A stretch of DNA of 35,270 bases. It comes from Bacteriovoracaceae bacterium (GTDB lineage: Bacteria; Bdellovibrionota; Bacteriovoracia; Bacteriovoracales; Bacteriovoracaceae). How positions within the stretch are numbered: the first letter of the stretch is position 1; the number at the start of each line of letters is the position of its first letter. The notes under the pieces are model-generated. The model was not told where the DNA came from, did no database searches, and was given only the letters and a program-made list of their open reading frames with translations. Of the stretch, positions 3,251 to 16,300 are shown piece after piece. The position numbers were made by a program, and so were the translations under genes. Location: positions 1 through 35,270 of the forward strand of contig DATGND010000277.1 in assembly GCA_035306925.1 (NCBI GenBank). Direction: 5' to 3'.

Positions 3251-3934
3251 ATGATTAGACAGATTCATTTAGAACAATGTGATTCTACACAAGATGTACT
3301 TAAAGAACAATTAAGCCGTTATCCTGGCGAAAATATTCTCATCAGTTGTGATTTACAAACCAGCGGAAGAGGCAGAGGCAATCATCAATGGAGTCCCATG
3401 CCCGGAAGCTTGTACATGTCATTCAGCGTCGCTCCCTCTGTTATCCCTAGCTTTACGGCCATCGAACTTTCTGTACTTGTTGCAGAATTTTTTGAAGGAT
3501 CAAAACTCACACTTAAATGGCCTAATGATATTTATAATCATGATTTAAAGAAATGCGCGGGTATTCTCATTCAGCAATCTAATAATCAAATGATGGCAGG
3601 AATAGGAGTTAACCTTTATTCAAACAATGAAGCTTACGGCGGAGTTTTTAATCAAAACTTTGAATGCGATAAGAAGTCATGGTGCCTTGAACTAGTAAAA
3701 TTTATCAATGAAAATAGATTCACCTGTATTACTGAATTAAAAAAGAAATGGATGGAAAAATGTCATCACCTTAATGACATGGTCGTCATCATTGATGGGA
3801 ATGAAAAAATTTCAGGGGCTTTTCGCGGTCTAGGCGAGTATGGTGAAGCCCTCATTGAAAATAGTGAGGGCATTCACAGAGTGTATAATGGAAGTCTTCG
3901 CTATTTTAATCCTGATCTTCAAGAACTTTATTAG
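3251..3934 (+). CDS. birA: Biotin--[acetyl-CoA carboxylase] ligase without an HTH domain
   Basis: DSTQ, QTSGRGR, KWPND, KCAGIL and GIGVN. ATG at 3251 preferred over TTG at 3233. Confidence 0.92.
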   Translation: MIRQIHLEQCDSTQDVLKEQLSRYPGENILISCDLQTSGRGRGNHQWSPMPGSLYMSFSVAPSVIPSFTAIELSVLVAEFFEGSKLTLKWPNDIYNHDLKKCAGILIQQSNNQMMAGIGVNLYSNNEAYGGVFNQNFECDKKSWCLELVKFINENRFTCITELKKKWMEKCHHLNDMVVIIDGNEKISGAFRGLGEYGEALIENSEGIHRVYNGSLRYFNPDLQELY

Positions 3935-5156
3935 AGATCTTCTTCAGTTCTGAGCGAATGAGATTTTCTGCCAGGTCAGGAATCATCTCCCAGGCAATCT
4001 TTTCAATTTTTGAAGAAAATAGCTCATCAAGATACTGTTTCACGTATTTTTGTACCATTTCTTCAACTTCTTCTCGAGAGACAGCAGAGATAGGCGCTGG
4101 AGTAGACTTTAATTCAGGAACGACATCATTTTCATCCAGGCGAGGGAAAATATCTTCATCAGATTCAAAAACTTTTTCAGTCTGCTCAAGATCTTTCACT
4201 CCCTGCTCGACTTCAGTTTTAAAGTCTTCAAACTCATCAACCTTCCACAAGTCCGCTTCTACTTCATCCTTGATCATCTCTTCTAGTTGATCAATATCAG
4301 AAGTTTCTTCAGTAGGGTATGTTTCTTCAAACTCGATCTCTGAAGGATAGTCAGTGTAGCTTTCCAAAGAAATAAGTTTTGATTCTTTTTCCTTAGCTTC
4401 TACCTTCGGTTTTATTTCAGGATACTCAAGGTCAGCAGCACTTGGAGTCATTGCTGTTGGATACTCTAAATCAGCTTCACTCGGAAGGTTCACATCAGTT
4501 TTTTCTTCTTTTTTAGTTTCTGCTGCTACTTCTGCTTCTGCTGATTCAGGAAGATCTATCACTGGAGGAAGATCAACCATTGGTCCTGTTGGAGATTGAT
4601 TAATAACTCCAGGGATACTCATTCCCCAATCGTTCATCTCTTTATCAAGCGCATTCATATCTCCACCTGAAGACGCTGGAGCCGCATCTTCAATCTTAGG
4701 TGGAACTTTCTCAACAGTATCATTTACACTCCATTGAGATTCCAGATTATCGAAGGATGAGGTTTCGTGAGGAGGATTGGCAATTCCTGGTTCCTGATGA
4801 GTTAATCTTTTACACAGAGAAATAAATTTGTTGGAATCAAACGGCTTTACGATTTTGTCTGAAGCTCCACATTTTTCCATGGTAGCATCATCAATCGTGT
4901 CGAATGTCCCCATTAAGAATAGAATCTGAGTGGTAGGGGATTTTACTTTAATTTTTTCTGCAAGTTCAGGACCAGAATATTTATCTGATAGATTAAAGTC
5001 TAAACAGACAAGATCAATTTTATTCTTTTCAAGTTCAGTGAAAAGAGCATCTTCTGATAAACACTCAATAAGATTGTAAGGTTGCTTGGCCAGAGTGATA
5101 TTAATAACTTTCTGAATGGTCTGGCTGTCATCAGCAACTATAACTTTGTAACTCAT
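3906..5156 (-). CDS. romR: RomR-like polarity response regulator (receiver domain, acidic/Pro-rich linker, RomR-C helix)
   Basis: Receiver VADDSQTIQKVI...GTFD...KPFDS. The C-terminal IEKIAWEMIPDLAENLIRSEL matches the RomR-C signature as I recall it from Myxococcus RomR (IEKIAWEVVPQLAETIIREEL). Confidence 0.88.
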   Translation of the reverse strand: MSYKVIVADDSQTIQKVINITLAKQPYNLIECLSEDALFTELEKNKIDLVCLDFNLSDKYSGPELAEKIKVKSPTTQILFLMGTFDTIDDATMEKCGASDKIVKPFDSNKFISLCKRLTHQEPGIANPPHETSSFDNLESQWSVNDTVEKVPPKIEDAAPASSGGDMNALDKEMNDWGMSIPGVINQSPTGPMVDLPPVIDLPESAEAEVAAETKKEEKTDVNLPSEADLEYPTAMTPSAADLEYPEIKPKVEAKEKESKLISLESYTDYPSEIEFEETYPTEETSDIDQLEEMIKDEVEADLWKVDEFEDFKTEVEQGVKDLEQTEKVFESDEDIFPRLDENDVVPELKSTPAPISAVSREEVEEMVQKYVKQYLDELFSSKIEKIAWEMIPDLAENLIRSELKKISNKVLEDQD

Positions 5157-5199
5157 CCCTGAATTCTCCTGTAGTCTAAAATTATAGGGTTCAGGGATG
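5154..5199. repeat. Perfect 10-bp inverted repeat overlapping the romR start codon
   Basis: CATCCCTGAA (5154-5163) and TTCAGGGATG (5190-5199), with a 26-nt spacer. Confidence 0.8.
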
Positions 5200-5210
5200 C
5201 ACTATGTGAA
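5181..5210 (-). promoter_or_regulatory. Putative sigma70 promoter for romR
   Basis: Minus strand TTCACA-N18-TATAAT, followed by an AGGAG RBS and the ATG. Confidence 0.55.
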
Positions 5211-5218
5211 TGAAAAAG

Positions 5219-5956
5219 TTAATACTCGAGCAGCATTGCGACTTGATTATCCACATTACCTTTAGTGTTGGATAGTTTTAGTAAACTATTAAGTCTTTCC
5301 CCTGAATCCAAAGCTGGTCGAGAGAGGTGATAAAGAATTTCTTCATCATTTACAGTTCCAAAAACACCATCGGAAAGCAAGAGTAGCTTATCCCCTTCAA
5401 CTAGTCTTACCTCTTTAAGATTATAAGTTAGTTCGGGGTACATTCCCACTGCACTCATGGGAGTAGAACGAAACCGTCCTTCAATCTGACCTTTAGAATG
5501 AAACTTCATATCATCTTCATGAATAATCTTAACTAAATTCCCCTCTCTGAAGTGATAAGCACAGCAGTTACCAATGCCTAACAACACCATTAAGCTTTCC
5601 GACTTTGCCGCTACAATCGTACTTATTCCCGCTCGCTGGTTAATCGTCTTAAGGTTATTTACGCTAAGTAAGGACTGGTGAGCGTTCAACAAGGCATTTA
5701 CTAGAGCATTGCCCACTAACACATTCTTAGGGTTATAGTATAAAGGCATAGTGGCATTAGGATCATCCGCTAGCTTTGTATAAAAATTTTTTACATGTTG
5801 CTTGAAGTTTTCAGCTGCAACATCTCCAATTCCTGAACCACCAAAAGCATCTATAATCAGATAGAGTTCATTCTCGAAATCAAAATCATACGCATCTTCA
5901 TTCACTTGAAGATATGGTCCTTGATGAGTTTTAGCTGCATAAGATTTCAATCTCAT
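5219..5956 (-). CDS. PP2C/PPM-family Ser/Thr phosphatase-like protein with degenerate motifs
   Basis: NED, IDAFGG, GNCCAY (canonical GDSRAY), LLSDG and DN motifs in PP2C order. Confidence 0.85.
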   Translation of the reverse strand: MRLKSYAAKTHQGPYLQVNEDAYDFDFENELYLIIDAFGGSGIGDVAAENFKQHVKNFYTKLADDPNATMPLYYNPKNVLVGNALVNALLNAHQSLLSVNNLKTINQRAGISTIVAAKSESLMVLLGIGNCCAYHFREGNLVKIIHEDDMKFHSKGQIEGRFRSTPMSAVGMYPELTYNLKEVRLVEGDKLLLLSDGVFGTVNDEEILYHLSRPALDSGERLNSLLKLSNTKGNVDNQVAMLLEY

Positions 5957-5958
5957 AG

Positions 5959-8199
5959 TTATTCCAGATACGTTTTAAGCTTGTCGCTTGCTTTTCTATA
6001 ATACTCACTGTCAGTCGGTGATATTTGTTGAACCTCTTGAAGCTTTTCTTTGGCATCATTAAATAATGAAAGAGATTCAGAAATAATAGCTTCTCTATAA
6101 AGTCTCTTAGATCTTGTGTCGATTTGATTACGAATATTATCTATTTCGTTTAACGCCTCAGCATTAGTCGGCTCTACCTTTAAAATATTTAAATAAGCTT
6201 CATAAGCGTTTTTAAGATCCTGACCTTCTTTCAGAGAGCGTGCACGACCTAATAAGGGACCCAACTCTTGAGCAAGCTCCGACTTAGCATCAGCAAGCAT
6301 ATCACTTGCTTCTTTAATTAAGTCTTCATCATTTCCCTTACGATTTAAAAACTCTTCCAATTTAAGGATGGCCTTGTACCAGTCTTTTTTCAGATAAAAG
6401 GTTTTACCTGGCGCCATAGCATCAACCATCGTCTTTCTAGCTGCTTCTTTAGCTGCTTGCTCTAGCCTTTTCTTTTCTTCTTCTTTTTGCCAAATCTCCA
6501 ATTCAAGTTTTAGCTGTTGGATTTCCATGTTCTCTGGATCTTTCTCAACAATTTGAGCAAAGTAATTTTCTGCCAGCTGGACCTGTCTATTCTTTACAGC
6601 TTCTCTGGCCTTAACCAGTAATTCATCGATAACTTTTTTCAGAGCAATTCTTTCTTCATCAGCTCTTTTCTTGGCTTCCAGTTCTTCGAGTTGCTTTAAC
6701 CCTAGTTTGGTTTGTTCAAAATAAGTTTGAACATTTTTATATTCAGGATCAATTGATACAACCGTTTCAAATTCTTTAAGCGCTTCAAAATATTTATTTT
6801 GTTCAAAAAAGCTTACTCCCAGTTCATAGGCAACATTTCTTCTGTTTTCTAACTCTGGGCTCAGTTGAATCCTTGGTTTTTCTTCAACTACTTTTTGCTC
6901 GGGAGCTTTTTGAGGAGTCGGAGGAGCTGCTTCCTCCCCTTCATAAAGAAGGGCCCATACTAAAATCAAACCAGCACCAATATATATGGCCTTCTTTCTT
7001 TGCTGAGGATTTTTAAGTATTCGCTTAATTATGCTTTTTTCTTCAGGTTCAGCTGGACCATCAAAAGAAATCTCACCTTCATCGAGATCGACTTCTTCTT
7101 CCTCGTATTCTTCAGTCTCAATAACCTGACCTGATTCAACCGGCATTAGTCGATCAGATTCAGCTTCCAAAAGGTCGGACTTAATATCTAAAGTAAAAGT
7201 TGTCGACCCAATCAAGAATTCATCCCCTGTCAGGATATGGGCCTTATTAATTCTTTCTCCATGTAACAAGGTTCCATTTGAAGAGTTCATATCTTCAAGA
7301 GTAATCTCATTACCGTTCTTTCTGATAACAGCGTGAACCGAGGATACCTCTGGGTCATTTAAAACAATCTGACATTTATTAGGATCTCGACCGATAAAAA
7401 CTTCATCCGTATCAAGCTGGTAGCGGTCGTAAGGAGCATATTCCCCAAAGATGACGAGTTGATAATTAATAAATGCTTTTAGAAAACGAGTCCCTTCATC
7501 CTGATCACCAAAACCATCCTCAGAACCCGAGAAGCCTTCTAGATCGCCTCCTCCAAAACCATCACTATATTCATCACCACCAAAGTCGGTGGATTCTTCT
7601 TCGCTATCATCTTCACTGGCAACTAAATCCATACTTTGATCATCATAGCCGGAATCTAAATCGGAGTAACTATCCTCTTGATTTGAATAATCACTCTCCC
7701 CAAAGCTATCATTATTTTCGTCACTGGCTTCTTCTTCAACTTCAGAAGAAGATCCTTCAGTAAGTATTTCTGTTTCTTCTTCAATTTCTTCCACCGGTTC
7801 AGGTATGTCTGAATCAGGAATATCTTCAACCGTTAAAGCTTCTGGGGCTTTCTCACTTTCGTCTGGAGTCTCTTCTACTTTTTCTTCAATCTTTTTAGGG
7901 AGTTCTACAGGGATGAGTGTATAAGGACCAAATTTAATCTCTTCTCCGCCAACAATTTCAGCTTGAGTGATGAGACTACCATTAATCAGAAGCACTCCTA
8001 ACTCTGAGAGCTTCTCGCAGTACCATTTATCATTTTGATTCTTAATAACCAGATGGTGTCTTGAGATTAAAGGATCATCGATGATGACATGACAATCATC
8101 GGCCCTTCCAATAAAAATCTCATAACTTCCGTACGAGTCAACAAAGTCTAGGACGACTTCATTAAGGGGTACGTTGTTTTTTAAGACAATGAGTTTCAC
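5959..8199 (-). CDS. FHA-FHA-TM-TPR membrane protein
   Basis: Two FHA domains (IGRADD..SRHH; IGRDP..SSVH..SSNG), an acidic linker, TM AIYIGAGLILVWALL and C-terminal TPR/coiled-coil repeats. GTG start with GGAG. Confidence 0.85.
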   Translation of the reverse strand: MKLIVLKNNVPLNEVVLDFVDSYGSYEIFIGRADDCHVIIDDPLISRHHLVIKNQNDKWYCEKLSELGVLLINGSLITQAEIVGGEEIKFGPYTLIPVELPKKIEEKVEETPDESEKAPEALTVEDIPDSDIPEPVEEIEEETEILTEGSSSEVEEEASDENNDSFGESDYSNQEDSYSDLDSGYDDQSMDLVASEDDSEEESTDFGGDEYSDGFGGGDLEGFSGSEDGFGDQDEGTRFLKAFINYQLVIFGEYAPYDRYQLDTDEVFIGRDPNKCQIVLNDPEVSSVHAVIRKNGNEITLEDMNSSNGTLLHGERINKAHILTGDEFLIGSTTFTLDIKSDLLEAESDRLMPVESGQVIETEEYEEEEVDLDEGEISFDGPAEPEEKSIIKRILKNPQQRKKAIYIGAGLILVWALLYEGEEAAPPTPQKAPEQKVVEEKPRIQLSPELENRRNVAYELGVSFFEQNKYFEALKEFETVVSIDPEYKNVQTYFEQTKLGLKQLEELEAKKRADEERIALKKVIDELLVKAREAVKNRQVQLAENYFAQIVEKDPENMEIQQLKLELEIWQKEEEKKRLEQAAKEAARKTMVDAMAPGKTFYLKKDWYKAILKLEEFLNRKGNDEDLIKEASDMLADAKSELAQELGPLLGRARSLKEGQDLKNAYEAYLNILKVEPTNAEALNEIDNIRNQIDTRSKRLYREAIISESLSLFNDAKEKLQEVQQISPTDSEYYRKASDKLKTYLE

Positions 8200-9127
8200 C
8201 CGGCTCCAATCCTAACTTTAATTCGAGGTCTTTAATTTGTTTTTCTGCATTCTTATATCTTACATCGTCAGGCACAGTATAAAGAAGCCTAATTATCGAA
8301 CAATAGGAAACTATTGCACTCTGATACTTAAGTGACTCTTCATCACGTTGAGCCTTCACAATATAGTCTTCAATAGATTGATCAAGATGTTCTTTGGTTT
8401 TTCTTAAATAGTATTCGGCTTGAGCGTCCCCTGGAGCAATAATCAGGGCCAGATTGAATTCATGAATGGCACGAAAGTAATTTCTTTCTCTAAACTCTCT
8501 TAAGCCTCGCTGATAGATAGTATTCAATCTTTCTTTAACTTGTTTATCTTCATTGGCCTGGCGCTTTTGAAGTGCCTGAACATATTCGTTAGTAGCATCC
8601 TGATAAGCAGGTACTTTTTTGGGAGGCTCATTCTGAGGAGTCTCATCATCCAAAAGGAACATCGCCATAAAAACGACAGCTAAGATTAAAACAGGAACCA
8701 TCGTTTTCTTACTAGCAGATGTACTTTGTTCCTCATCCTCCTCTACTTTGCCACCCTTAACCAACTTCGGCTTAGCTGCTACATCTTCTTTGGCAAACTT
8801 TAAAACTGTTTGACCGATAATAATTCGGTCACCTATTTTAATTTTATGTTGAACAGCTTTTTTATCATTAACGACCACACCGTTCTGCGATCCTAGATCT
8901 GTTACAATCCAGTCTTGTCCAACTTTAGTAAACTCCGCATGCTCTCGGCTGGTCTTATTATCGTTAATCCTGATATCAGCTTTTTCAGAACGTCCCACAA
9001 CTAAACGATTACCTATAAGATAATAGGTTTCGCCTTTGTTGGGCCCAGTCAGACAAATTAGCTTGAAGTAAACTCCTGCTTCTTTGGGCTGATCAAAATT
9101 TCTCAGAACTAATACATTCTTTGCCAT
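8162..9127 (-). CDS. FHA-TM-TPR membrane protein
   Basis: FHA VGRSE..SREH..SQNG, TM VPVLILAVVFMAMFLL and TPR YQRGLREFRERNYFRAIHEF. Confidence 0.85.
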   Translation of the reverse strand: MAKNVLVLRNFDQPKEAGVYFKLICLTGPNKGETYYLIGNRLVVGRSEKADIRINDNKTSREHAEFTKVGQDWIVTDLGSQNGVVVNDKKAVQHKIKIGDRIIIGQTVLKFAKEDVAAKPKLVKGGKVEEDEEQSTSASKKTMVPVLILAVVFMAMFLLDDETPQNEPPKKVPAYQDATNEYVQALQKRQANEDKQVKERLNTIYQRGLREFRERNYFRAIHEFNLALIIAPGDAQAEYYLRKTKEHLDQSIEDYIVKAQRDEESLKYQSAIVSYCSIIRLLYTVPDDVRYKNAEKQIKDLELKLGLEPGETHCLKKQRTP

Positions 9128-10698
9128 TAATCATTATTTACGAAAGTAATATAAAAAGCTTTCGCAAACCTATCCCTTCCAATTAAAGCTGCTACATTGA
9201 TACTCATATCCTTACCGCCAATTTCATAATGTTCACTTTGGTTACTTCCATCATTGTTGGCAGATTGATCACATAAATCGATTACAGTTGCTGCAAAACC
9301 CTGGTCTTTAGCAGTATCCAATAAGCTTTGCCCTGATGCTGAACTCTCTCTTAAACCAATCAAGTCTTCACATTCAGGATTAATATGTTGGATAACTTTT
9401 TGCGAATCCAGAATCATCACCGGGCCTTGTGCCCCTGCCATAAATTCTTGTAAGCTCCGCACGTAAGGGCCATCCTCTTCCAAGGTGTCCATTTCTCCAG
9501 AATCAGTGTTCTGCAATTCTTTTAATCGACTTAAAATACTATTAATTGTATTTCTTAGTGGATTTAGCTCTCTAAACAAGGACTTAGACTCCAACTCCTT
9601 CTGTCTTCCCCGTAAAACCCTCTCAATCTGAAAGCGCATATCCTCCAGAGGCTTAGTCGTCATGTAATAAAGCATTCCAAAGAAGATAATCGCCACCATT
9701 GCAGAGGTCATTAATGACTCCAGATAAGCCTTGGAGTTATTAGAAGCTTCTTGAGCTAGAGAACTTGGTGAGAACTCCAGGGTAACAATGGCCACAACCA
9801 CATCCCGACCGAGGTTTCTATCGTGGGCCTTAATGGCCCGTGCAATCCCAATCTTATTGCCACCTAAGTCTTTAATGATTTCTTTATCCTGGTTACTTTC
9901 TACGCGATAAAGACGAAGGGCCTCAACGGAGAAAGAATCATTAACAATAGTGTTAAGCTCTGAGACAGGACGATAAACTCGTCCTTCAATATCAAAAAGT
10001 TTATAGCGTCTAACCCCTTCGGCATCATCCCCTTCCAGGAAGCCGGTATAAACTTGATCCAAGTTCTTATCACGTAAGAAAACGTTATTAAGTCTATCTA
10101 CTTCCGCCACGTACTGCTTACCTCGTAAGGCAATCTCTTTAATGAGAAGCATTTTGGAATCACGAAGGACAGGAAGAATTGTCAGAGTAATATTACAGGC
10201 AATGAAAATAAAAAGCAGAATTCCTACTAAAGCAGACCATTCATACTGTTCATTGAAACTATAAATAATCGGCATCACCTTATACTTAAAAAACCATATA
10301 GGCTTTCCAAGTAAAGATTGCGGCATCGGCTCGATCTTTTGCTCATCATAATCATCAGCATCATCATCGGAGGACTTTAAAACCTTCTTCTTAATAATCA
10401 CTTTTTTCTCGATGACATAAACGAACTGGAAAATGACATTAGGAAGAGCAATCTTATCGCCATCTTTGAGCGTTATTTTCTTAATGATCTTACCGTTAAC
10501 TATTGTTCCGTTTGCCGAACCTAAATCTTCGACAAATGCAGTATCACCATTAACGGTGATCTGAAGATGTTTCTTTGAAACTCCATCAGCAGAAATAGTG
10601 ATATCGCATTCCGAAGAACGACCAAGAGTATTCTCTCCATCATTTAGAATGAACTCTTTACCTCGGAGTTTTCCACCTACCGCAACTATCTTAAACAA
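9127..10698 (-). CDS. FHA-TM-periplasmic domain-TM-HAMP-PAS protein with no catalytic output domain
   Basis: FHA LGRSS..SKKH..SANG. Two TMs flank about 150 aa. HAMP-like TKPLEDM...ELNPLRNTIN and PAS-like GPVMILDSQKVIQHINPECEDLIG. TTG start with GGAGG. Confidence 0.8.
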   Translation of the reverse strand: MFKIVAVGGKLRGKEFILNDGENTLGRSSECDITISADGVSKKHLQITVNGDTAFVEDLGSANGTIVNGKIIKKITLKDGDKIALPNVIFQFVYVIEKKVIIKKKVLKSSDDDADDYDEQKIEPMPQSLLGKPIWFFKYKVMPIIYSFNEQYEWSALVGILLFIFIACNITLTILPVLRDSKMLLIKEIALRGKQYVAEVDRLNNVFLRDKNLDQVYTGFLEGDDAEGVRRYKLFDIEGRVYRPVSELNTIVNDSFSVEALRLYRVESNQDKEIIKDLGGNKIGIARAIKAHDRNLGRDVVVAIVTLEFSPSSLAQEASNNSKAYLESLMTSAMVAIIFFGMLYYMTTKPLEDMRFQIERVLRGRQKELESKSLFRELNPLRNTINSILSRLKELQNTDSGEMDTLEEDGPYVRSLQEFMAGAQGPVMILDSQKVIQHINPECEDLIGLRESSASGQSLLDTAKDQGFAATVIDLCDQSANNDGSNQSEHYEIGGKDMSINVAALIGRDRFAKAFYITFVNND

Positions 10699-11035
10699 CT
10701 TCTACCTCCAGAATGTCTCCTTCTTTGAGTTCCATAGGAAGTTTACCGGCCGGCATTTCAAGAGTTTTGGATGCCTTAAAATAAATCCAGGTCATTCTCC
10801 ACGGCTTGAGATTTCTGATTATCTTTATGACTTTATTTTGAGAGTTTAAAAAAGCGACGTCGATTGGATATCTCATAAAGCAAGTGTGAATTGAATTACA
10901 AGGATCCAGTAGAAGACCTTCTGCCTCTTGAGGAGGACTGGCCCTGAACATCAGACCAATGATTCGAGAGAGCATATTATCTGCTACCAATATCTTCTCT
11001 GAAATACATTTATCATTCACTGATATTCTTAACAT
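10691..11035 (-). CDS. DUF192 family protein
   Basis: VADNMLSRIIGLMFR, CNSIHTCFMRYPIDVAFL, LKPWR and LEMPAG. Confidence 0.9.
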   Translation of the reverse strand: MLRISVNDKCISEKILVADNMLSRIIGLMFRASPPQEAEGLLLDPCNSIHTCFMRYPIDVAFLNSQNKVIKIIRNLKPWRMTWIYFKASKTLEMPAGKLPMELKEGDILEVEVV

Positions 11036-12417
11036 TAAAGCTTCCCTGTCATCATTTTCAGAACCATCGGTGCAAAAATGGCGACTAACACCGCTGGTAG
11101 AATAAAAAAGATCATTGGTATCAAAATCTTAGTCGCAGCGGTTGCTCCTAATTGTTCTGCACGGGATGACCTTTTTACTCTTAGTTCATTTGATAATTGT
11201 TTGAGGATCGGCCCGATTGAAGCACCCACAGAATCCGCCGCAATTAAAGTTGCACAGAATGAGTTAATTTCAATCATGTTCACACGCCAGCTTAGTTGTC
11301 TTAAACCTTCTGCACGAGAAGAACCGATTTTGGTTTCACGAATCAGAGTTTCAAACTCTTCTACCAATGGACTTGGTGGAGCTTTCTCAATCACCCGTTG
11401 AATAGCGGCCATAAAGTCAAGACCGGCCTCTACCGAAAGGGCCAGCATATCTACAATGAAAGGCATCGCTCTTAGCGTTTCTTGATTACGTCTTTGAATT
11501 TTTCCATTGAGCCAAATATTAGGGTAGAAAAAACCTACGACCCCCATGATCGGAGTTAGCGATAAAGGCCAGTCCTCTTCTAAAAAGGCTCTTACTGCTA
11601 AGAAGACAAAAGGCCCCCCCAGAATCATGAAAAGTTTTAATGAAACAAACTCTTCAGGGGTGAGATCTTTAGTAAGTCCTGCATTTGCCAATTTCTGACG
11701 ATACTTCGCTCTTATTTTGGCCTTACTTTTTGAACCTTGAACCATCGGTAGAAAGTATCTTTTATAAAAAGGCTTCGTTACTTTTACCAGGAAGTCCACT
11801 TTCTTGTTTTTATCAACTTCAACTTCTTCCAGGGCTTCACTTGCCTTAAACTTGTCCTGATCTTCCATGAAGGTTCGAACAATAATAAAGATGGCGATAA
11901 AGACCAAAGCAAGAGGTGAATAAAAAAGAAGATTATGAGCAGCACGTGCTTTTTCTACTTCTTTAGTAAAGTAGGCCAGCGATGCATCTTTAGTTAAACT
12001 TAAAACACATTTATTATCTTTTCTAACGAGTTCCAGAGCAGATAAGCCTTCTCGATCTAAAAAGATTCTGTTCTTTAACCATTGGTTACGATCTACAGCA
12101 ATGGTGAGTGAAGAGTTAGGAACAAAATTTCGAGAATCAAAAGTTACAGCTTCTAAAAAGAGAGTACACTCTCGATTATTAACAATCGTACCAATAACTT
12201 TTAACTTTCCAACGCTACCGCCTGGAGTTTGATAAAAGTAGATATTGCCTTTTAAATCATTTGAGAGAATGAGAGGCTTCTCAGAATAATTCATCCGAGA
12301 TTGTTGAATACAACTTGAATTGATATGCGAAAAGTCTTTAGGACAAACGTTTCCTTGGGCCTGAGCTTCAGACATCAGCAGCAATTGAAGAATGGCGTAG
12401 AAAATTAATTTCATCAT
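11035..12417 (-). CDS. tadC: TadC-like type II secretion system F-domain protein with an N-terminal signal peptide and extra exported domain
   Basis: KLANAG, MPFIVDMLALSVEAGLDFMAAI, LIAADSVGASIGPILKQLSNELR and TKILIPMIFFILPAVL. About 160 extra N-terminal residues. Confidence 0.88.
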   Translation of the reverse strand: MMKLIFYAILQLLLMSEAQAQGNVCPKDFSHINSSCIQQSRMNYSEKPLILSNDLKGNIYFYQTPGGSVGKLKVIGTIVNNRECTLFLEAVTFDSRNFVPNSSLTIAVDRNQWLKNRIFLDREGLSALELVRKDNKCVLSLTKDASLAYFTKEVEKARAAHNLLFYSPLALVFIAIFIIVRTFMEDQDKFKASEALEEVEVDKNKKVDFLVKVTKPFYKRYFLPMVQGSKSKAKIRAKYRQKLANAGLTKDLTPEEFVSLKLFMILGGPFVFLAVRAFLEEDWPLSLTPIMGVVGFFYPNIWLNGKIQRRNQETLRAMPFIVDMLALSVEAGLDFMAAIQRVIEKAPPSPLVEEFETLIRETKIGSSRAEGLRQLSWRVNMIEINSFCATLIAADSVGASIGPILKQLSNELRVKRSSRAEQLGATAATKILIPMIFFILPAVLVAIFAPMVLKMMTGKL

Positions 12418-12512: not shown

Positions 12513-13592
12513 TTAACCTATATTAAGCTGTGATAGTTGATCATTTAGCTGTGCGATTAGAGTTTTGCTCTCTTGTTTTTTGAAAACTTTGGCAACGTCT
12601 GGGATATATATCGGCTTGTATTCAGATAGGTATTCTTTCTTGCACTTCTCAATACGGTGAAGCTTGGCCTCAATATCATCTTTATGAAGGACACGTTTTT
12701 TAATGGCCTCGTTGATGGCATTGTAGGCCCTCTGAGCATCTTCCATGAATCGATAAAGAACGATATCAGCTCCCGCCTTAACGGCCATAACGGCTGCTTC
12801 TTCAATACTGTATCGGTCTGCTACAGCTTTCATTTCCATATCATCAGTGATGATAATTTTTGAAAACTTGGTTTCCTCTCTTAAAAATTTATAGGCCTTT
12901 TCAGAAAGACTGGTTGGGAGCTGATCATCGATAGCATCCACCATTAAGTGGGCCATCATCATAAACTCCACTCTGGATTTAGAAGCTTTAATAAAAGGAA
13001 TCAGTTCGCGACTTCTTAACTCTTCCAAGGAAGTTTTGACATAAGGTAAATCAAAGTGTGAATCCTTAAAAGTATTACCATGTCCAGGGAAATGTTTTGC
13101 ACAGGCCATGATTCCATTAGTCTGCAAACCACGAATAGCTGCTGAAATATGTTTTTCCACAGTTTCAGCATCTTCTCCAAAGGCCCTATCACCAATAACT
13201 TTATTTTCAGGGTTAGTAAGAATATCGCAACATGGAGAATAACAAACGTTTACTCCGCAAGCGGCTAATTCTTTTGCTAGCAGTTGATGTACCTCAAAAG
13301 TGATTTTGGGTGAATCCAACTTAGAGAGATGAAGCATTGGAGGGAGTTGTGAGAAATGAGTTTTAAATCGAGCAACTCTACCCCCTTCCTGATCAACTGA
13401 GATGAATAAAGGATACTCATCTCTTTCTTTTTGAATGGCATTAACTAGTTCGGCCAGTTGTGCCGGATCCTGATAATTATGAGCAAATAGAATAATCCCA
13501 CCCAATTTGGAATTTCTGATAAACTCAGCTTCCTCTGGGAGAAGGGTTAGCCCCTTAATACCAGAAATGATCAATTGTCCTACATTATCCAT
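12513..13592 (-). CDS. nagZ: Beta-N-acetylhexosaminidase (GH3)
   Basis: GGIILF, VDQEGGRV, KHFPGHG..DSH and ITDDMEM. No signal peptide. Confidence 0.95.
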   Translation of the reverse strand: MDNVGQLIISGIKGLTLLPEEAEFIRNSKLGGIILFAHNYQDPAQLAELVNAIQKERDEYPLFISVDQEGGRVARFKTHFSQLPPMLHLSKLDSPKITFEVHQLLAKELAACGVNVCYSPCCDILTNPENKVIGDRAFGEDAETVEKHISAAIRGLQTNGIMACAKHFPGHGNTFKDSHFDLPYVKTSLEELRSRELIPFIKASKSRVEFMMMAHLMVDAIDDQLPTSLSEKAYKFLREETKFSKIIITDDMEMKAVADRYSIEEAAVMAVKAGADIVLYRFMEDAQRAYNAINEAIKKRVLHKDDIEAKLHRIEKCKKEYLSEYKPIYIPDVAKVFKKQESKTLIAQLNDQLSQLNIG

Positions 13593-13594
13593 AT

Positions 13595-14350
13595 CTACTC
13601 CATTTCTTTAGAAATACTTTGACCAATTGGTAACAACGTAATTCCTTGGGCAACCCATGCCATTTTAACTAATTCATGACTTTCTGAGAAGTGATAGAGA
13701 ATGAGCTGACCACCAACATCTATGGCCACCCGATGACCATCCCTATCCTTTCCTTCATATCGTGCTTGCGCTCCTACAAAGAGATCTCTTTTCATCGACG
13801 ATAGCATCTCCGCTTGGTAAGGCCACGAATCCCAGACTACAAAAAACTCTCTACCTCTCTTAGCATCAATAACTGAAGCTAAAATACCGTTATAAGCTAG
13901 ACATTCAGGAATCTGATTAAAAAAGCAAAACTGCTCATGACGTGGGAAAGGAATATTTTCGACTCTTCTTTTTTTACCTGGTTCGATAATAATGGCCTTC
14001 ATTGATTTATTTTTAACATCAATTCTTAATGATGACTTATGAAGTTTACCATCCAACCACACTTCATAATCCGAAGCCATAGGTCTAAAGGTCGTTGTGC
14101 GACCATTTCTGGTCTTAATTGTTCCAGGTTGAGAAACAGTTATACTTTTTTCAAATATCTTAAGACCATCGCGGGCACTGATAATGGAACGATTAACAAC
14201 TTTCTTATTGATAGTTTTCTTTTCTCGAGAAATTTTAAAATCACCAGATACATCATGATAATTAAAATGACGTACACTATCCTGAGGAATCCTATTACTC
14301 CCAGTTGATGAACAAGAGACAATAAAAAGGAGAATAAAAAAAATTTTCAC
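13595..14350 (-). CDS. Hypothetical lipoprotein
   Basis: MKIFFILLFIVSC lipobox-like start. The GTG overlaps the upstream stop (TAGTG). Confidence 0.75.
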   Translation of the reverse strand: MKIFFILLFIVSCSSTGSNRIPQDSVRHFNYHDVSGDFKISREKKTINKKVVNRSIISARDGLKIFEKSITVSQPGTIKTRNGRTTTFRPMASDYEVWLDGKLHKSSLRIDVKNKSMKAIIIEPGKKRRVENIPFPRHEQFCFFNQIPECLAYNGILASVIDAKRGREFFVVWDSWPYQAEMLSSMKRDLFVGAQARYEGKDRDGHRVAIDVGGQLILYHFSESHELVKMAWVAQGITLLPIGQSISKEME

Positions 14351-15150
14351 TAGATGAAATTCTCAAAATCTTTATTGGAATCAATTTGTCTTAGTAATTC
14401 GTTAATTTTCCGGCCTAAATGATTATCAATTTTAGAACTTAAATTTGGAAAATTAACCCCCACTTTAAATTTCTTCCCTTTATCTGAAATATAAGGAACG
14501 ACATAAACAACTTTTGCTTCAGGAATAACAATCACTTCATCAGGGAAATGAATTTCGAGGTTTTTATAAACCTGATCTTTGACGATAAACTTTTCTTCAA
14601 GTTCTGAAATATGAAGGGCCAGCCCAGTTGCCGAAAGATCCTGGACACGAACTTTGACATACTGATTTTCAGAGTCCCCTTTATCTACTAACTTTAAATA
14701 ACTCTTAAAAAGATTTTTACGACTTACACCCGTGTTTAAATTAATAACACTACTATCCTCAACCAGATGATCGATATGAAAAAGAGCATAGATCTCATAG
14801 ATGGGATAAGTGAGAAGTCGATAGCTTGATCTTCGTTCTGATTTATAAAGAATGTCTGCAAGCTTAAAGAGAGTATAACCTTGAGAGCTTTTCACAACGG
14901 TAAGCTCACAAAAGAAATTCATTCCTCTTAATTCGAAAGTTCCTAATAATTTAGCCTGAGTTTCAAAGATAATGTCGCCATTATCTACCACTAACTCATT
15001 TAGCTTTTTATCAAAATGAGTTGCTTGGAACTTATAGCGTTGTGCTGATCCTTTTTTCCAAACAACGATCGTTTCTTTGAGAGTAGCAAGCTGATTAAAT
15101 CTGCTTGCTCTCTCATCAGGAGTTTGTTTACTAAAAAAGGTTTGAGACAT
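14350..15150 (-). CDS. PilZ-domain protein (YcgR-like c-di-GMP receptor)
   Basis: RxxxR (RSSYR) and DxSxxG (DLSATG), preceded by an N-terminal beta-rich domain. Confidence 0.8.
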   Translation of the reverse strand: MSQTFFSKQTPDERASRFNQLATLKETIVVWKKGSAQRYKFQATHFDKKLNELVVDNGDIIFETQAKLLGTFELRGMNFFCELTVVKSSQGYTLFKLADILYKSERRSSYRLLTYPIYEIYALFHIDHLVEDSSVINLNTGVSRKNLFKSYLKLVDKGDSENQYVKVRVQDLSATGLALHISELEEKFIVKDQVYKNLEIHFPDEVIVIPEAKVVYVVPYISDKGKKFKVGVNFPNLSSKIDNHLGRKINELLRQIDSNKDFENFI

Positions 15151-15151
15151 A

Positions 15152-16300
<1,149 letters not shown>

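Follow-up and report, generated by a model that had tools for sequence, protein, structure and literature searches.

The locus studied here poses the question of why a gene for an inner-membrane platform subunit of the Tad pilus should head a run of signalling genes, and whether that run is a single functional unit. It lies in a 35,270-nt stretch of Bacteriovoracaceae DNA (the window; contig DATGND010000277.1 of a genome, G000, that is 77% complete), where seven open reading frames (ORFs) extend from tadC to romR, all on the - strand, at positions 3906..12417. An earlier note on this DNA had described the seven genes as one phosphothreonine-gated module tying a Tad pilus to prey contact and to the RomR pole, and knew of no mechanistic description of it. 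That proposal is upheld in part: its links to Tad and predation and its phosphothreonine sequence features stand, while the undescribed status, the inclusion of romR in the unit and the role given to a PP2C-like phosphatase are weakened. The six genes from tadC to the PP2C homologue (the cassette) are regarded, with somewhat better than even confidence, as the part of the predatory Tad pilus that supplies platform and signalling from a locus of its own, forming a phosphothreonine-gated inner-membrane complex.

The cassette as part of the Tad system

By sequence comparison, the six genes are the Bacteriovoracaceae orthologues of Bd0470-Bd0475 of Bdellovibrio. The gene order tadC, DUF192, FHA-PAS, FHA-TPR, FHA-FHA-TPR, Bd0475 is the same in the window and in an HD100-type locus (L074). 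For five of the six L074 proteins the best BLAST match among the ORFs of G000, searched in one direction, is the corresponding window gene, at 22-37% identity. These are the 460-aa TadC (Bd0470/KilH orthologue; 11035..12417; PF00482; E 4e-56); the DUF192 protein (Bd0471; 10691..11035; PF02643; E 6e-18), for which a PDB sequence search gave no match; an FHA-transmembrane-periplasmic sensor-transmembrane-HAMP-PAS protein without an output domain (Bd0472; 9127..10698); an FHA-transmembrane-helical repeat protein, matched over its FHA part only (E 6e-7) and assigned to Bd0473 by position and profile (8162..9127); and a 746-aa FHA1-acidic linker-FHA2-transmembrane-TPR protein (Bd0474; 5959..8199; E 3e-21). 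Bd0475 and the divergent PP2C-fold protein of the window (5219..5956) give no BLAST match; their family profiles align (98%, E 1e-13). The L074 protein at the Bd0474 position also agrees with 17 of the 18 residue positions printed for Bd0474 (PMC12034629), the next-best offset giving 4 of 18. Thus, the five best matches, the profile match and the residue agreement together identify the cassette as the Bd0470-Bd0475 operon.

The ORFs, their span, strand and all junctions are exactly as first described. The junctions are TAATG for tadC/DUF192 and again for FHA-PAS/FHA-TPR, an 8-nt overlap for DUF192/FHA-PAS, a 38-nt overlap for FHA-TPR/FHA-FHA-TPR, a 2-nt gap before the PP2C gene and 62 nt from there to romR, and the overlapping genes fit translational coupling of the cassette. 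Two RNA runs contained 6-7% of the words and yielded no more than scattered contigs. Searches of the block with Pfam and NCBIfam returned T2SSF, DUF192, four FHA, PAS, TPR, weak PP2C and receiver domains. The four FHA domains lie in three inner-membrane proteins, as had been proposed, the hydrophobic segment of the 746-aa protein being weak in the window (Kyte-Doolittle value 1.79) and at least 1.8 in 112 of 117 orthologues. Also as described, a scan of 31 window ORFs, those of about 110 aa and above, turned up no family of tadA, tadB, secretin or kinase; a pilin could be smaller.

The Bdellovibrio locus, its need in predation and a polar, RomR-dependent Tad apparatus are already known, and published work is cited here from the text available for each paper. 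All six genes were predation hits on planktonic Vibrio cholerae in mini-transposon sequencing (Tn-seq; fitness 0.0006-0.064) and are induced in attack phase (Duncan 2019, PMC6561027), which bears out the proposed link to predation. In a 2026 preprint (bioRxiv 10.64898/2026.07.08.737194), TadC co-localises with RomR at the invasive pole, in line with the suggested tie to that pole; RomR binds TadZA, and polar Tad depends on RomR. The published connection therefore runs through TadZA and not, as had been supposed, through the cassette proteins. With Duncan 2019, PMC12034629 and the preprint all treating the locus, it cannot be called undescribed, although the preprint leaves the signalling genes beside tadC as future work. 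A term search of PMC11025332 and two supplements returned no Bd047x entries, its full proximity table possibly lying outside that coverage, and reviews and genome papers (PMC13689555, PMC13147790, PMC12428579, PMC12075869) name Kil FHA proteins as candidate regulators and, in the text available, add nothing further on the locus.

Gene order places the cassette in the Tad system. The TadC core was matched in all 301 genomes of the phylum Bdellovibrionota, and 120 of 300 tadC loci, picked for contiguity and family spread and not at random, were surveyed; the lineage groups are our own pooling of families, and kin within them are not independent. A five-gene core is present in 116 of the 120, confirming the expected conservation of order, and the exceptions are two loci cut by contig ends, one without DUF192 and one (G184) that is split. 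The closest named loci belong to Bacteriovoracaceae, where the whole block is kept in six of six. Among the 114 loci with at least 8.5 kb downstream, rcpC and other main tad genes follow the cassette in 17 of 20, 5 of 6 and 4 of 4 loci of three groups (26 of 30), and in 0 of 84 in the other three. Because the core order is kept phylum-wide and runs into the main tad locus in three groups, the cassette belongs, by gene order, to the Tad system; what looks like a 'separate' tadC operon stands in other lineages at the start of an uninterrupted tad locus. Outside the phylum, the representatives gave mostly unnamed matches, with one labelled Deltaproteobacteria and one Bradymonadales by NCBI.

The remaining tad genes of G000 were located on two other contigs. 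Contig C22 carries flp, an A24 peptidase, TadE/F-like genes, rcpC, rcpA and a TadZ-TadA fusion, an ATPase with a ParA/MinD-like N-terminus and no FHA match; C271 carries tadB with an RHS/YD gene, and both tadZA and tadB are cut by contig ends. The pilus set (Flp pilin, TadE/F-like, RcpC, RcpA, TadA, TadB, TadC) is present in this genome, the Flp families scoring below cut-offs. The tadC block stands apart from these genes, as the proposed split Tad/Kil-like system would have it; Bd0470 is the KilH orthologue, and no Bdellovibrio locus is listed for KilD in the text available of Seef 2021 (PMC8460266). The prepilin peptidase of C22 (L134:1968-2450) matches PF01478 above cut-off. On C271 (L135:3508-5752), tadB is followed by an RHS/YD-repeat gene that matches the post-tadB gene of L181 at 33% and by two small secreted-looking ORFs, as in the Bdellovibrio hit region.

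The same gene order could arise if the FHA/TPR proteins served another post-attachment machine, for example with Bd0075, and shared the tadC operon for attack-phase co-expression only. By microscopy and flow cytometry, the Bd0474 mutant attaches while the tadC mutant is unable to; in individual tests the former attached without rounding or killing prey, its pooled Tn-FACSeq value being low (Duncan 2019, PMC6561027). Bd0474 moreover binds Bd0075 in a bacterial two-hybrid assay (PMC12034629), and a Bd0075-like gene is present in G000. In G184 tadC and the three FHA genes are on separate contigs; like the contrast between the two mutants, this counts against a joint complex as well as for a separate machine. 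Such a machine is nevertheless thought quite unlikely, given the order kept behind tadC throughout the survey, the full tad loci that the cassette heads in three groups, and the FHA and FHA/TPR genes that also adjoin the tadC orthologue kilH in Myxococcus (Seef 2021).

Several loci vary in content. The 0.9-Mb, 96%-complete genome G230 (L045, L182, L183), a member of the same taxonomic order, keeps a tadC with a beta-type extension, DUF192 and three FHA genes, as well as a short romR-like gene, the kinase and an Stp1-type phosphatase; the cassette PP2C is missing. In L107 and L110 (family f6) an extra FHA protein of about 400 aa stands between the FHA-PAS and FHA-TPR genes. Family f11 loci (L115, L119, L120, L129, L132) encode a Bd0474-type protein without a detectable FHA1, with the linker Thr and FHA2 kept, and carry ORFs of 900-1,100 aa among the tad genes. 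In two related genomes (G278:C16 and G263:C27) the tadC match ends with one in-alignment TGA, probably a natural stop. Directly upstream of tadC, at 12513-16267 of the window, a co-directional run that is kept in most Bacteriovoracaceae loci comprises mreB, a gene for a PilZ protein, a lipoprotein-like ORF of 251 aa that belongs to no known family, and nagZ.

A linker threonine, its candidate kinase and its candidate readers

Sequence features of phosphothreonine signalling are present as had been proposed, in the form of FHA cleft residues, a linker Thr and a conserved kinase encoded elsewhere. The Gly-Arg, Ser-x-x-His and Asn-Gly motifs are complete in three of the four window FHA domains, FHA1 of the 746-aa protein lacking Asn-Gly. 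Despite overall identities of about 20-25%, the cleft Arg, Ser and Asn are kept in three domains: best in FHA-PAS (112 of 117), then in FHA-TPR (108 of 117) and FHA2 (104 of 117). The FHA-PAS protein models as an FHA domain joined to a WalK-like sensor without the kinase; its predicted structure matches the transmembrane-periplasmic-transmembrane-HAMP-PAS region of WalK (Foldseek E 7.6e-14), the kinase part being absent.

The linker of the Bd0474-type protein is acidic (38% Asp plus Glu), and a Thr lies 33-37 residues N-terminal of the FHA2 Gly-Arg in 112 of 118 proteins, the window included, against a background of 24% in linker windows of the same size, a range that was set after inspecting the data and among genomes that are related. 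Serine, as a control, occupies this position in 34 of 118, and a fuller motif occurs in 90 of 118 against a 5% background. In the window the residue is Thr237 (codon 7489..7491, - strand), a predicted phospho-acceptor directly before FHA2 that corresponds to Thr133 of the HD100-type protein and is nearly invariant in an independent global alignment as well. The T133 context, E-K-T-M-I, resembles E12-K13-T14-S15-I16 of DgcB, whose T14 phosphopeptide was solved in structure bound to the DgcB FHA domain (Meek 2019, PMC6733907). The linkers scanned in the other two FHA proteins held no comparably conserved Thr (best 61 of 119). A complex prediction between the FHA domain of the 523-aa FHA-PAS protein and residues 216-247 of the 746-aa protein, supplied as an unphosphorylated peptide, scored 0.02. 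Elsewhere in G000 (C227:1933-2841) there is a DgcB-like FHA-GGDEF protein with the N-terminal tail D-N-S-T-I-V.

One Hanks kinase of G000 exceeds the Pfam cut-off, a membrane kinase on contig C83 that is unlinked to the cassette. Its domain is matched in 79 of 80 genomes at 1e-40, including the 0.9-Mb genome that also keeps the cassette, and has a single HD100-type match, at 3.06 Mb, which by interpolation of gene numbers, and not by residue, we infer to be Bd3148. Bd3148 is needed for predation as a Tn-seq hit (fitness 0.003 and 0.059) with attack-phase induction (Duncan 2019) and a candidate kinase for DgcB in Meek 2019, which leaves the prey-sensing kinase pathway open.

The proposed switch would begin with prey contact, upon which a kinase would phosphorylate T237. 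Only six residues join T237 to FHA2, which seems too little for binding in cis; phospho-T237 would therefore be bound in trans, most likely by the FHA domain of the WalK-like sensor protein or by that of a neighbouring copy. Binding would clamp the three membrane proteins around TadC and license a post-attachment step. The PP2C-fold protein would be chiefly an adaptor, which in this lineage may retain some activity, and a canonical PP2C encoded elsewhere would reset the switch. The romR gene would be an adjacent gene transcribed from a promoter of its own, and TadZA would provide its functional link.

It may be instead that the FHA domains play a structural part that does not depend on phosphorylation, as does the cytoplasmic domain of SctD/YscD in the type III secretion system ring, and that the three proteins make up a constitutive inner-membrane scaffold for a pre-assembled polar Tad. 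Such a scaffold would suit the window proteins, whose Yop-YscD_cpl scores are similar to their FHA scores, as well as the loss of the Asn in FHA1, a PP2C homologue that is still needed without its Asp motifs, and a Bdellovibrio Tad that is polar before prey contact (2026 preprint). It would account poorly for cleft residues retained in three domains at such low identity, for a Thr kept in an otherwise variable acidic linker, and for a conserved kinase whose apparent counterpart Bd3148 is a Tn-seq hit. A purely structural role is therefore considered rather unlikely.

Further observations weigh against the phosphothreonine-gated complex itself, beyond the retrospective choice of the linker range. 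FHA1 is complete in only 11 of 111 proteins (the Asn is missing; Arg and Ser-Arg are kept). At +3, a position that is crucial in DgcB, the residue varies (Gly in 30, Phe in 18 and Ile in 14 of 118), so the linker Thr could be structural. The literature searched, with subscription papers and bioRxiv supplements outside its coverage, reports no phosphorylation of T237 or T133. Complementation is reported for Bd0470 and Bd0474 only, and transposon insertions in Bd0470-0473 may be polar (Duncan 2019); all of the genetics, moreover, comes from Bdellovibrio, across the 22-37% identity given above.

The PP2C homologue and romR

In its strict form the earlier proposal joins the seven genes in one unit, in which the cassette PP2C does the gating and RomR is co-expressed with the FHA proteins as their partner. 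Part of the evidence on the phosphatase favours this. The window protein keeps all four metal-binding Asp, which we take to be those of PP2C motifs 1, 2, 8 and 11, and the four motifs are present in 37, 37, 34 and 34 of 37 Bacteriovoracaceae proteins (one cut by a contig end). The corresponding counts are 13, 16, 9 and 5 of 18 in a second group and 4, 0, 0 and 1 of 35 in the Bdellovibrio group; the 18 loci of two further groups yielded no PP2C. The Arg of motif 1 is, however, Leu in 37 of 37, and the cassette protein scores 66 bits, below the NF033484 cut-off of 230 for the Stp1 type; its top PDB sequence match, by a small margin, is PppA (6JKV). A canonical Stp1-type gene was found elsewhere in all five genomes tested, above the cut-off in four and at 247 bits in G000, and the cassette PP2C was accordingly rejected as the sole phosphatase of the genome. 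In L074 the co-directional run stops with Bd0475, a protein without the Asp motifs that is a Tn-seq hit all the same. For a degenerate protein in this last position of the operon to be a hit, the simplest function common to the family is a non-catalytic one, catalytic activity of the window protein being possible. The divergence of the window protein, the lost Arg and the canonical PP2C elsewhere speak against the role it had been given; in Bd0475 an essential phosphatase homologue has lost its metal ligands.

The romR gene (3906..5156) encodes a polarity hub with a receiver, an acidic or Pro-rich linker, a conserved RomR-type C-terminal helix and homology to Bd2761. The acid pocket of the receiver is intact in the window, a point in favour of the strict seven-gene proposal, and its residues are present in 36-37 of 37 proteins. 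In HD100 the RomR receiver is truncated (Lowry 2019), and the best HD100-type match carries the landmarks of that paper by our count. The RomR profile matched 44 of 80 genomes at 1e-12, a figure that reflects the threshold and not absence.

The adjacency on which the seven-gene unit was based is real within one order. In all 35 Bacteriovoracales loci romR directly follows the cassette, against none of 79 others, and even the rearranged 0.9-Mb genome that lost its PP2C retains a short romR-like gene there, which favours a kept link. Housekeeping neighbours are, however, kept about equally (nagZ 39 of 40, birA 34 of 35, rph 33 of 35), and outside Bacteriovoracales, of the 30 loci that score best, 25 have nadC or birA no more than 1.5 kb from romR. 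For these two reasons the PP2C-romR junction looks like a join of two older blocks, the romR side deriving from romR-nadC-birA. Since the neighbours are equally conserved, romR linkage was rejected as proof of a single functional cassette.

The 62-nt gap contains a sigma70-like site overlooked by the earlier note, TTCACA-18-TATAAT (5181..5210, - strand), which at 11/12 is the top site in the 10 kb scanned. Sites of at least 10/12 occur in this gap in 7 of 36 relatives and at 0 of 107 control junctions; the promoter scan overall was at chance (22 found, 24.3 expected), and only the site before romR stands out. It probably serves romR as a separate promoter. In Bdellovibrio romR is induced in growth phase, in contrast to the attack-phase induction of the cassette (Duncan 2019, PMC6561027). 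Taken with the motif-1 Leu and the equally kept neighbours, these observations render the strict seven-gene unit distinctly improbable.

Fused TadC domains and comparison with known systems

The N-terminal extension of TadC, about 160 residues in the window, had also been overlooked. It comprises a signal-peptide-like segment (aa 1-21) and a beta-rich domain with three invariant Cys (aa 22-161; together 11935..12417, - strand), predicted to be periplasmic. Extensions of at least 80 residues are found in 25 of 40 Bacteriovoracales TadC proteins and in none of those of 80 other loci; 22 of the 25 have a hydrophobic start, and export is predicted from hydropathy only. By eye, 13 are beta-rich, as in the window, and 12 are Cys-rich and helical; the latter, a repeat extension, is found at the equivalent place in TadC proteins from a different branch of the family (L024, L026-L028, L031, L033-L038, L051). 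The label 'Sel1-like' for this helical type was likewise given by eye, Pfam returning a weak TPR_8 in one of four only. In the TadC tree a supported branch (98/92) separates the two types, and proteins that lack an extension occur to either side of it. The window-type domain was modelled confidently, at a predicted local distance difference test (pLDDT) score of 86, and fold searches gave no clear match (best Foldseek E 0.013; best VIA Z 5.9, root-mean-square deviation 7.0, 117 aligned); an ESM Atlas search gave no usable match. The domain occurs in 42 proteins, each of which also has PF00482, and in one 149-aa piece on a 1,150-nt contig, with no other copy in G000.

In the literature searched, with the coverage stated above, no account was found of the linker-Thr motif, the fused TadC domain or the loss of the PP2C Asp. 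The present analysis adds a candidate switch residue and candidate kinase, the finding that the cassette and the main tad genes are contiguous in other lineages, the series of phosphatase decay and the domains fused to TadC. How Tad is linked to the signalling genes, open in the 2026 preprint, is narrowed to one near-invariant residue, Bd0474 T133, with a candidate kinase and candidate readers. The switch is thereby reduced to a point-mutant question in Bdellovibrio, a non-pathogenic and tractable predator under study as a living antibiotic. A wider and more speculative proposal, offered tentatively and held to be possible but on the doubtful side, is that across Bdellovibrionota one Bd3148-type kinase phosphorylates a shared acidic-x-Thr-x-hydrophobic motif on both DgcB (cyclic di-GMP) and the Bd0474-type protein. 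The phosphothreonine would lock three FHA membrane proteins, one of them a kinase-less WalK-like sensor, onto TadC and so switch Tad from attachment to invasion; in Bacteriovoracales, TadC would have gained exchangeable periplasmic domains, one without a clear solved-fold match, that tune the contact sensor.

The closest known system is the tadC locus of Bdellovibrio, which shares the six genes, their order and domain layouts, and a tadC apart from the main tad locus. G000 and Bdellovibrio also have in common a TadZA fusion and a hit-like locus elsewhere. Unlike Bdellovibrio, G000 has a TadC fused to a predicted exported domain, a PP2C homologue with its metal ligands kept and romR directly after the cassette; its main tad locus includes an A24 prepilin peptidase, whereas the tad loci of HD100 are without a canonical TadV according to the 2026 preprint. 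The Kil system of Myxococcus xanthus (Seef 2021, PMC8460266) is likewise a split Tad-like system, with genes listed as FHA and FHA/TPR beside kilH. The Kil ATPase KilF carries an N-terminal FHA domain, in contrast to the TadZ-TadA fusion of G000, and the Kil table of that paper, in the text available, names no DUF192, PP2C or FHA-HAMP-PAS protein.

The phosphothreonine switches of the tail-FHA kind (DgcB T14, Meek 2019, PMC6733907; GarA; OdhI) resemble the Bd0474-type protein in having Acidic(-2)-x-Thr-x-hydrophobic(+2) N-terminal to the FHA domain, and the FHA folds match. Unlike that of DgcB, the motif here belongs to a membrane-anchored protein without enzyme output, lies 13 residues closer to the FHA Arg and varies at +3. 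In the Pseudomonas type VI secretion system (T6SS), the PpkA-PppA-Fha1 pathway gates an envelope machine on contact by means of a kinase, a PP2C and FHA proteins. A T6SS threonine phosphorylation pathway has also been cited as an analogy for Kil (PMC8460266). The present locus differs from PpkA-PppA-Fha1 in that the machine is Tad, the kinase is unlinked and the linked PP2C is divergent.

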